Shown in pieces: positions 41,798 through 51,937 of a DNA stretch of 64,000 nt (position 1 is its first letter; every line of letters begins with the position of its first letter). A model generated the notes under the pieces. It was not told where the DNA came from and made no database searches. It worked only from the letters and a program-made list of their open reading frames with translations. The stretch is from Nitrosopumilus sp. (lineage in GTDB: Archaea > Thermoproteota > Nitrososphaeria > Nitrososphaerales > Nitrosopumilaceae), in NCBI GenBank assembly GCA_965207445.1, contig CBDBLX010000002.1:672001-736000 (forward strand). The letters are read 5' to 3'. The position numbers and the translations under genes were made by a program.

Positions 41798-41827
41798 TCT
41801 ATATTGTATCCTTACGTACTTACTAAC

Positions 41828-42060
41828 GGATCTTCTGCGTTAATCGTTGGTATCTTGCACGCTAATATCATTGCCGTTTGTGCAACATTAATGCGCTACG
41901 TATTATGGCCGTCGTTGCATGAATGCTCAAGACCCTTGGATTCACATGACAAGGTTGCAACCGTTCAGTTATGTATTATCAAAAGTTTATTCAACCACGT
42001 CATGAGTACCTACAGAACTTTACCAGATTTCCGTTACCACACGATTAATGCAAAATATCA
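41828..42060 (+). mobile_element. MITE family B, left copy
   Basis: Near-identical direct repeat of 43747-43977; imperfect TIRs. Confidence 0.88.
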
Positions 42061-42104
42061 GCCTACAGTCCTACTTTATATTCATTCACGTAACTCATAG
42101 AACA

Positions 42105-43157
42105 ATGTCACGTGTAAACTTGCCCGTCGCATTAGGCTTGGTTCTGAACAGATATTGTAACAGTAAAAAAACAGTCAAAATACAATGTATGATCTCAGTA
42201 GTCAGTTTTGACGTAAAAACAGAATTTGAGAAGCCAATATTGGGCTATCAAGTGAGAGTAAAACAGAGTACCGAGTTTGATGGATTCATAGATAATATTT
42301 GTGCGGTCTCACATAACGATGATGAGTTGGGAATGTTCCATTTGGTGCAACAGCAAGATGAGTTCTATCTAATTAGCAGCGAACGGGCAGGAGTATTCAG
42401 GTACATCATATTAAAAATTTTCAAATATCTTTATCCAAAAATTATATTTTCATTCATTCATTCGAGTTCCATGTGTCAAATTTTGTCAGACTTTGAGACA
42501 AAACACAATGTTGAGCTAATGAAAAAGAAATCCATTGAGAAACAACTGTTTGGAATCTCTCCAAGAACTGAAATTTCATACAAAACACAAAAAACAGGCA
42601 GAGAGTACCCAAAAGTAAAAGATACTTTTGAAGAAGCGCAAATGCAAGATTTATGGATTGAAAAAATACAAGTGTTCAGTAATGCCAATAAAAAAACACA
42701 ATTTACCATCTCCAGACGAGGAGAGGTATCTATTGAAAAAGGTACGTTTGATACTTTTTTCTCTACAATTCTTGCGCCAATTATTCAACAAAGTAAACAA
42801 AAACGTAAACAGTTTGAAAATAGGAGTAGGAGCGAACAATCAGATAAAAGACCCAAACCGCTGATTGTGCGATTTGGCAAAGATGTTTTTAAGACAACGA
42901 AAACCAGAAAAGATTTTTCTAAAATCTTGGGCAAATACACAAAATGTAATTATTCTATAATTCACAATGGAAATCCTCATGTGTATTTATCTGTCTTGGA
43001 TAGAATTGATAACTCTTCATTCTCAGTACGAACAATTGGGGATAGTTCTTTGTTGCTGATTCCACAGATTAAAACTTCTGCATTATCTTTGCTAAGATTT
43101 TCCGAATTTCTTGTTTCTTCATTTCATGAAGGAGACATTCAGAACTATGAAACCTAA
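42105..43157 (+). CDS. Uncharacterised 350-aa cargo protein
   Basis: Intact ORF; TATA-like TTTATAT ~25 nt upstream of ATG 42105; A-rich composition unlike neighbouring + strand genes. Confidence 0.8.
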   Translation: MSRVNLPVALGLVLNRYCNSKKTVKIQCMISVVSFDVKTEFEKPILGYQVRVKQSTEFDGFIDNICAVSHNDDELGMFHLVQQQDEFYLISSERAGVFRYIILKIFKYLYPKIIFSFIHSSSMCQILSDFETKHNVELMKKKSIEKQLFGISPRTEISYKTQKTGREYPKVKDTFEEAQMQDLWIEKIQVFSNANKKTQFTISRRGEVSIEKGTFDTFFSTILAPIIQQSKQKRKQFENRSRSEQSDKRPKPLIVRFGKDVFKTTKTRKDFSKILGKYTKCNYSIIHNGNPHVYLSVLDRIDNSSFSVRTIGDSSLLLIPQIKTSALSLLRFSEFLVSSFHEGDIQNYET

Positions 43158-43640
43158 AACTTCTGAACTAATTAAAGAATGCAGAGATGCAAAATAAAAT
43201 GAGTTTGATGCATACTATCAAACCGTAACCATATCTGTAGGTTTGAAACATTTGTTTGCAAGTTCATAACCATGTGTTTTCAAAGTTAATGAACTATCCA
43301 TGAAAACTAGTGACAACACAGTAACTCCAGATGCTATATTTCAATGCGATAATGATACTGTTGGAATCGTCTGTGAAATAAAAACGGCGCTACCCAATGA
43401 TGAAAAAATACTTTTTAAAGACATAGAAGAACAACTGGAAAAATATTCCAAAATAGAAACTCGCTGAAAAAGTCACAGACAAAGATTACGAATACAAAGT
43501 TAAATGGTCATCAAAAGCATCTAAAAATCGAAAAGAGTACTTGTTAGATAAATTATGTGGAAAAGAAAAGTCTCAAATTACTAGTGGAATACAAAAGAAA
43601 TTAACTGACTGATTTGAATCGGTTTTACTGGCCAAGTTAA
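43147..43640 (+). pseudogene. Decayed PD-(D/E)xK nuclease gene
   Basis: Frame from ATG 43147 reads ...TVTPDAIFQCDNDTVGIVCEIKTALP...EEQLEKY with in-frame stops at 43195, 43267, 43465; 3' end approximate. Confidence 0.7.
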
Positions 43641-43746
43641 TTCTTAAATCGAAATATGAAGAAATGAGATCAGTTCCGATTGTATTTATTTGGATTTAAT
43701 TTCTGTAAGAATTGGAAATTTTATATTATATTGTTCTGTGACTTCA

Positions 43747-43977
43747 GAATCTTCTGCGTTAATCGTTGGTATCTTGCACGCTAATATCATTGCCGTTTGT
43801 GTAACATCAATGCGCCACGTATTATGGCCGTCGTTGCATGAATGCTCAAGACTCTTGGATTCACATGACAAGGTTGCAACCGTTCAGTTACGTATTATCA
43901 AAAGTTTATTCAATCACGTCATGAGTACCCACAGCACTTTGCCAGATTTCCGTTACCAACATTAATGCAAAAGACCC
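43747..43977 (+). mobile_element. MITE family B, right copy
   Basis: Near-identical direct repeat of 41828-42060. Confidence 0.88.
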
Positions 43978-44023
43978 CTTACTAACGTAACATCTTTTAA
44001 TGCCGTATGAACATGTCAGTACA

Positions 44024-44912: not shown

Positions 44913-44962
44913 ATATTGATTGTATATTGATTGTATATTGATTGTATATTGATCGTATATTG
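44913..44962. repeat. 11-bp tandem repeat (TATTGATTGTA x~4.5) upstream of pepF
   Basis: Read directly from sequence. Confidence 0.85.
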
Positions 44963-45007
44963 TTTACTATCGGGTGGTTTTTTAAATGGCATGTAACATC
45001 CCAATAT

Positions 45008-51038: not shown

Positions 51039-51429
51039 GTGAGTATTGGCAAAAGTGGACAGGTGCGCCGCAGGGAGGCGGGTACGTGGATACTAAATGT
51101 CTCATCAGCCGTCATGAAATCCGCAGGCGTCGGGTTCTCGTCCGGGCACAATGCGCGCTACGGGGTGCGGGAATGACTGGCAATCCTGGTCGAGATGTGT
51201 AGCCAATCCCTGACGGCGGAGTCCGCGGTCCGGAACCTCAAGAACATACGCACCGCGCCGTCGGAGAAATGGTTTCGCACCATGATGAACATGATCAGCC
51301 GGGACGGGGCGGAGGCCGCCTGCGGCATGATGGTGAGACTAACCGTGCGGCTGGCCAAGAAGCGCGGCATGGGTAGGAGGGGAAGCGTACTGATGGCAAT
51401 AGACAAGTACCTGATCGGGCAGTTCGACC
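51039..51429 (+). pseudogene. High-GC IS4/ISH3-like transposase N-terminal fragment
   Basis: Frame from GTG 51039: ...HNARYGVRE*LAILVEMC...APSEKWFR...VLMAIDKYLIGQFD; stop at 51174; truncated just after the first putative catalytic Asp; family call tentative. Confidence 0.55.
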
Positions 51430-51937
51430 TGGTACGTGACTTGCTACAATGTAACCGCCACGCAAAAGGTCTGGCTAGTATTAATGCATCTATACCTTGT
51501 CTGTCTTTTTTTTTTGATGCTGCAATCACCTTTGTTGATCTGGGATTGGATAAGATTACATCCGGATTTAATTTCTCCTTGAGGAATTTGTACATCTTAT
51601 ACCATACAGAGGATGATTCAATCACATACTTTGCACCGTCTGGAAATTTGACAAACTTTTTTTCCACAATTTTGTAATCACATTCTATCTTTTCATTTTG
51701 TAAAACTGTTCCATCAGATTGCATGATGGCAACCCGCATGAATTTTTTGTGAAGATCAATTCCGACAAAATACTCTTCAGGTGTCTTTGTCGATTTCTTT
51801 TTCTTCTTTTTCGTCACAGGGCTTGTAACTGTCTTCATATGTACACTTTTTTTACCCATAATCTGTTTGTTTGCATTTTTGGCTTTGTTATGGTTGGCAT
51901 CATCTAACCTACTTGATGTGCTTTTCTTTTTTTCCAC
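51430..51937 (-). pseudogene. IS110-family transposase remnant (DEDD domain only)
   Basis: YFVGIDLHKK, IESS, SNP; after correcting three small insertions it reads KKKTDKVDALILADLLRGGYI..SHVP, then is truncated. Confidence 0.85.

Follow-up and report, generated by a model that had tools for sequence, protein, structure and literature searches.

Do the intact open reading frame (ORF) and the broken, nuclease-like gene that share a small cassette in Nitrosopumilus sp. form a genuine two-gene system and, if they do, what might this system be for? The locus lies in a 64,000 nt stretch (positions 672,001–736,000 of contig CBDBLX010000002.1, assembly GCA_965207445.1; from here on, the window, whose own coordinates are used below) and consists of gene A (42105–43157, + strand; 350 aa, intact) and, behind it, gene B, a pseudogene in two pieces (43147–43461 and 43457–43612, both on the + strand). 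An earlier note, written from the letters of the window alone, had proposed a horizontally acquired and undescribed defence pair whose toxic half had been inactivated. Our comparisons indicate that the A–B pair is real, undescribed and widespread, occurring in thaumarchaea, haloarchaea and Actinomycetota, and that it is decayed in this window. On balance, and with some reserve, we favour the view that A and B make up an undescribed two-component conflict module, directed against viruses or plasmids, in which a RexA-like clamp would operate with a nuclease, and which is borne on a cassette and inactive in this genome.

The coupling of both genes is evident from a six-frame scan of loci L001–L004, L031–L037 and L050–L074, which contained 36 distinct places with gene A outside the window. 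Gene B was found directly behind A at 26 of these (20 full-length, five broken and one cut by the end of a contig), and A preceded B at 26 of 27 B places, although most loci had been fetched through A; of the five fetched through B, four also had A. The only B lacking A is a 5′-truncated remnant (L062, 8719–10557), situated just after RNA polymerase genes and, by eye, beside a tRNA-like sequence. Of the ten A places without B, several are fragments and one is close to the end of its contig. Loss is thus asymmetric, with ten A places devoid of B and five with a broken B as opposed to no intact stand-alone B, and the recurrence of A without a working B fits the loss of a costly half. Likewise, among 72,556 plasmid records, a haloarchaeal B query retrieved the same seven as each of two A queries did, namely two from Arthrobacter and five from haloarchaea, one plasmid being represented twice among the latter; a B query of the thaumarchaeal type produced no plasmid match. 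The trees of A and B from 21 pairs had 16 of 18 splits in common, with one of the pairs combining A from the window with the B protein P0202, a pairing that we infer by way of the 92%-identical P0003. The agreement of trees and linkage shows that A and B are inherited together, in keeping with the two-gene module proposed in the earlier note, and not that they are in physical contact.

The distribution of the pair is patchy. Among 400 genomes of the family, A was present in ten (one of them a weak match with stops) and B in ten, with eight genomes in common at first look, and a phylum-wide sample of 400 genomes contributed a single weak match, also containing stops. The pair also resides on plasmids, and there are several subfamilies, with tandem or decayed copies inside single genomes. 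Certain high-GC relatives (L056, L066; G052, G071, G089) contain many A copies from several subfamilies as well as tandem A–B/A–B duplications with one decayed B. In another locus (L071, 8646–9179), a DUF3037 gene occupies the place of B directly after an A copy, and a ShosTA pair lies at a distance of about 3 kb.

The reading frame of gene A is open over its 350 aa and contains the C-terminal block quoted in the earlier note. Its model, predicted with confidence (predicted local distance difference test, pLDDT, 95), comprises two parts: residues ~4–235 would adopt a DNA-clamp fold like that of RdgC, lambda RexA and CENP-L, and residues ~235–350 would form an extra KA1/TBP-like domain, which is the most conserved part of the protein. 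The best structural matches were to CENP-L/Iml3, with RdgC among the top ones, and phage RdgC proteins headed the list of viral matches; the identity to RdgC (Escherichia coli, 2owl) and to CENP-L/Iml3 is 6–9%, with a root-mean-square deviation of 4.6–6.5 Å. The guess that A is a sensor or partner gains support from this predicted fold. A word search identified 37 relatives of A, about 32–92% identical, and a profile search extended them to 588 clusters at 50% identity. No longer or fused forms of A appeared among proteins of 707–2015 aa, which is weak evidence, and A and B share no homology. Neither gene received an assignment from PADLOC, Pfam, NCBIfam or PHROGs, in agreement with the proposal that the pair is undescribed, and neither had a match in a sequence search of the PDB. 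With the hidden Markov models (HMMs) of PADLOC 2.0 and NCBIfam 20, nothing better than E 0.01 was obtained for the proteins of the window, eight intact B and ten diverse A, a negative that covers these two releases and leaves room for newer systems or for ones missing there.

The 3′ end of gene A overlaps by 11 nt the ATG of gene B at 43147, and an alternative ATG for B is located 21 nt upstream of it. As previously noted, the frame from 43147 reads TPDAIF...GIVCEIKT...EEQLEKY and meets stops at 43195, 43267 and 43465. All three stops are present, but the third is not a lesion of its own, as became clear from comparison with the intact relative P0202 (338 aa). One frame of the window corresponds to residues 1–~112 of P0202 (80% identity over the first 125 residues), and another frame to residues 288–338 (88%). 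With P0202 as a reference, gene B therefore contains two TAA nonsense codons (43195 and 43267) and has lost about 175 codons through a deletion that is out of frame, with the stop at 43465 being a by-product of the resulting frame shift. The 3′ piece, which follows the deletion and ends at the TGA in 43610–43612, corresponds to the end of a predicted winged-helix-like region. Over positions 41942–43778, no sequence differences were seen among contigs from four runs of one sample (perhaps the source sample), nor was any joint seen across the element in the contigs of that sample.

A PD...(D/E)xK motif with a downstream QxxxY helix is the signature of restriction-like PD-(D/E)xK nucleases. The PD...ExK...QxxxY motif noticed in the 5′ piece of gene B is a property of the family: P, D, E, Q and Y are invariant in 15 diverse N-terminal domains, with K in at least 90%; D/E/K are retained in 52 of 59 B sequences, and 15 of the 21 B proteins in pairs have kept the motif whole. 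Judging from these residues, the product of gene B is probably a nuclease of the PD-(D/E)xK superfamily that includes the QxxxY helix. Sub-threshold matches were limited to REase_AHJR-like profiles in 4 of 53 B members (best E 0.004) and, for the C-terminal part, to scattered winged-helix families. Intact B proteins are ~335 aa long, and the two that we scanned contain no transmembrane (TM) segment.

Both genes are enclosed in a recognizable mobile unit, as the earlier note supposed. They are flanked by two direct repeats of ~230 bp, 96% identical over 210 nt, which are miniature inverted-repeat transposable elements (MITEs) made from the joined ends of an insertion sequence (IS) of the IS6 family. 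The left MITE (41828–42060, + strand; its inner end is degenerate and the right boundary approximate) matches bases 1–131 (85%) and 2014–2088 (87%) of the parent IS, and the right copy (43747–43977, + strand) is in direct orientation to it; each MITE hence consists of the first ~130 and the last ~80 bases of a 2.1-kb IS that has several copies in the host genome (G000), and whose transposase exceeds the cut-off for PF13610 (DDE_Tnp_IS240). Immediately outside lie identical 9-bp target-site duplications (41819–41827 and 43978–43986), a 9-mer that occurs eight times in 2.49 Mb, counting both strands; full-length copies of the parent IS are bordered by 9-bp duplications in three of four cases and by an 8-bp one in the other. 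According to PMC7986276, IS6 pseudo-compound transposons have directly repeated flanks and form through cointegrates, and there are IS6 MITEs of 227 and 336 bp. The unit at 41828–43977 shares with transposons of the IS26 type the directly repeated IS6-derived ends around a cargo and the outer target duplication, and differs in having ~230-bp flanks without transposase, a 9-bp duplication and an archaeal host. The unit thus fits the IS6 pseudo-compound pattern, which suggests a cointegrate-type insertion. No second copy of A or B was found in the host genome.

The same IS family is represented on contig C2 by young copies (620883–623023, 1719734–1721874, 2221232–2223324 and 2238823–2240915) with 28-bp terminal repeats and mostly 9-bp duplications; their transposases are unusually long, 579–595 aa, with a zinc-finger-like N-terminal region and internal repeats. 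Contig C2 also contains a separate 221-bp MITE of this family with both terminal repeats (1834380–1834600), and the same terminal repeats around ORFs that by eye resemble an IS66-type transposase (2232381–2234646), possibly a hybrid or nested element.

Composition is a poor guide to the origin of the cargo. Its A-richness had been taken as a foreign signature, and we reject this: with an AT skew of 0.11, gene A stands at the 41st percentile of 921 long ORFs on contig C2, whose coding strands average 0.13, which is ordinary, and the surroundings appear T-rich because the minus strand carries most of the neighboring genes. In composition, foreignness is hinted at only by the GC content, 33.8% versus 40.6% (2nd percentile). 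In turn, the idea that the toxic half was inactivated while its partner was kept holds in that B is broken and A open, but the case for a purposeful retention of A in this genome is weak, because from the divergence of the two MITE copies, and considering substitutions only, the frame would have stayed open neutrally with a chance of 21–44%. The 17 lineage-specific changes in A lean to variable sites (P = 0.017), on a branch that includes time before the insertion, and we consequently rejected strong selection on this copy. A bacterial promoter scan, a method unsuited to archaea, performed at chance level.

In the mechanism that we envisage, which takes the linkage, the mobility, the predicted fold of A and the motif of B as its basis and is favored further by the patchy distribution and the asymmetric loss, A would dimerize into a non-specific DNA clamp that detects or surrounds foreign DNA as it enters or replicates. 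Its extra C-terminal domain, the most conserved one, may hold B and trigger it, and B would then cut DNA, with the result that the invader is restricted or the cell aborted. The logic would be that of the RexA sensor and the RexB effector, with a nuclease replacing the membrane effector. The cassette would have reached this genome as an IS6-MITE pseudo-compound unit, generating the 9-bp duplication, and B would have decayed afterwards, so that the module is most likely off in this genome.

Several observations weigh against a conflict module built on a nuclease. A PADLOC scan that covered 138 ORFs called in the vicinity of 25 loci, and 141 ORFs from 20 control stretches in nine of the same 11 genomes, found defence genes at 10 of 25 loci versus 5 of 20 controls, using a threshold (E ≤ 1e-40) chosen after the tables had been seen; this is not a significant enrichment (p = 0.35), so that the link to defence islands which the earlier note proposed to check received no significant support. 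The figures were 7/17 loci versus 5/14 controls in high-GC genomes and 3/8 versus 0/6 in low-GC genomes. Moreover, many copies of the pair are located among housekeeping genes, searches of viral contigs and phage records yielded no copy of A or B, and B has neither a family profile above threshold nor a significant PDB profile match, such that the PD-(D/E)xK assignment expected for it did not emerge above threshold. Finally, the motif is incomplete in six of the 21 paired B proteins, where the pair nonetheless persists. On the other side, single loci adjoin SIR2, restriction-modification genes, a HamAB-like pair, ShosTA, dCTP deaminase or AbiJ, and plasmid copies are near DUF1156, HNH and methyltransferase-helicase genes.

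The persistence of pairs with a degenerate motif also bears on an addiction module, in which B would be a constitutively toxic nuclease neutralized by A, stabilizing the plasmid or cassette without sensing infection. This persistence argues against such a toxin-antitoxin arrangement, as does the size of A (350 aa), which, with its predicted DNA-clamp fold, is unlike a small labile antitoxin; we deem it doubtful. Conversely, the missing enrichment in defence genes would suit an accessory for DNA transactions of mobile elements, in which a clamp similar to RdgC would load a structure-specific nuclease when plasmids and islands recombine, are repaired or restart replication, with no part in defence. 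The prominence of RdgC among the fold matches, led by phage proteins on the viral side, and a plasmid locus that adjoins an SMC ATPase and a DNA-repair exonuclease point in the same direction. However, the pair is very patchily distributed, multi-copy and fast-decaying, and its neighbors include no constant replication or recombination partner in the loci examined, all of which makes this explanation quite unlikely in our opinion.

The degenerate B proteins include those of three of four haloarchaeal loci and of both Arthrobacter loci, as would be expected if A and B were mainly a non-catalytic DNA-binding sensor, made of a clamp and a winged helix, with an optional nuclease site and its output assigned to a variable third gene. 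Genes with hydrophobic segments, that is, membrane-protein genes, adjoin the three haloarchaeal pairs with a motif-degenerate B (L031, 6416–7801; L034, 6348–7670; L033, 10169–10819); those of L031 and L034 are homologous (25% identity, E 3e-53) and by eye resemble CorA-like effectors, without a Pfam match. The fourth haloarchaeal pair retains the motif, and its downstream neighbor is devoid of TM segments. Nevertheless, the Arthrobacter plasmid of L035 combines a degenerate B with no hydrophobic gene among the three neighbors tested, this comparison of motif loss and membrane genes is a small sample of six loci, and the motif is retained in 52 of 59 B sequences. We consider this arrangement very unlikely, and the conflict module described above is the reading that we retain.

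A more speculative and rather improbable extension is that gene A founds a large prokaryotic clamp family of the RdgC/RexA type, represented by the 588 clusters, whose members would serve as general sensors. Their outputs would be interchangeable: most lineages would use a PD-(D/E)xK nuclease, and those with a dead nuclease would rely on membrane effectors. Given that CENP-L/Iml3 provide its best structural matches and that archaea possess it, A may also be nearer than RdgC to the ancestral form of the CENP-L/N clamp of the kinetochore; if true, this would indicate that the clamp originated in a conflict system. A CENP-L-like fold predicted in archaea is also relevant to where the DNA clamp of the inner kinetochore came from, and an unnamed two-gene family from thaumarchaea, haloarchaea and Actinomycetota gains a predicted fold and a testable mechanism. 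To our knowledge, few defence systems have been tested in archaea, and intact pairs on plasmids of culturable strains make this one cheap to test. The copy in the window is itself a decayed passenger, and one clear case in which IS6 MITEs of an archaeon have moved a cargo. Elsewhere in the window there are a transposase-like fragment, IS110-like by eye (51158–51937), and a short 11-bp tandem repeat (44913–44967) upstream of an oligoendopeptidase-like gene.

The nearest named proteins to A and B are the uncharacterized MJECL33- and MJECL32-like families (Pfam PF25924 and PF27326), from the large plasmid of M. jannaschii, which are the respective look-alikes of A and B in the Atlas (score 0.92–0.94). 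Record NC_001732 contains a pair of neighboring genes that overlap and are ordered as in A–B, bearing MJ_RS tags, which judging from gene order are presumably MJECL33 and MJECL32. With hhalign, A2 aligned to the first of these genes over 272 columns (E 3.7e-4), and B aligned to the second only along 41 columns of the nuclease motif (E 1.4e-4); HMMER found no match between A2 and the first gene, and the PF25924 and PF27326 models were absent from the matches in all family scans. MJECL33/MJECL32 would thus be, at best, a distant sister pair of A–B. Our literature search found no paper naming the MJECL33/MJECL32 pair, no system joining an RdgC fold to a nuclease and no paper on A–B, with subscription papers and defence-mining supplements, which might list the pair, lying outside its reach.

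Among systems with a described mechanism, KwaB from Kiwa recalls the clamp proposed for A in that it dimerizes and has a central channel through which it binds DNA without specificity, but it is described as a Rossmann fold with DUF4868, having a membrane partner and no nuclease (PMC11785009); PADLOC detected no Kiwa match for A or B. Compared with RdgC and CENP-L/Iml3, gene A has the extra C-terminal domain and a constant coupling to a nuclease-like gene. A parallel in logic is exclusion of the lambda RexAB type (PMC11077077; PMC12894663), whose partner is a multi-pass membrane protein instead of a soluble nuclease-like one. Additionally, A carries the KA1/TBP-like domain as a third domain, and the A–B pair, which has no PADLOC or PHROGs match, was not seen in a prophage or immunity-region context. 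The pair would work like RexAB without being a member of that group, because its partner is not a membrane protein, and it would extend RexA-like sensing beyond the RexAB of prophages, to a nuclease output and to archaea.
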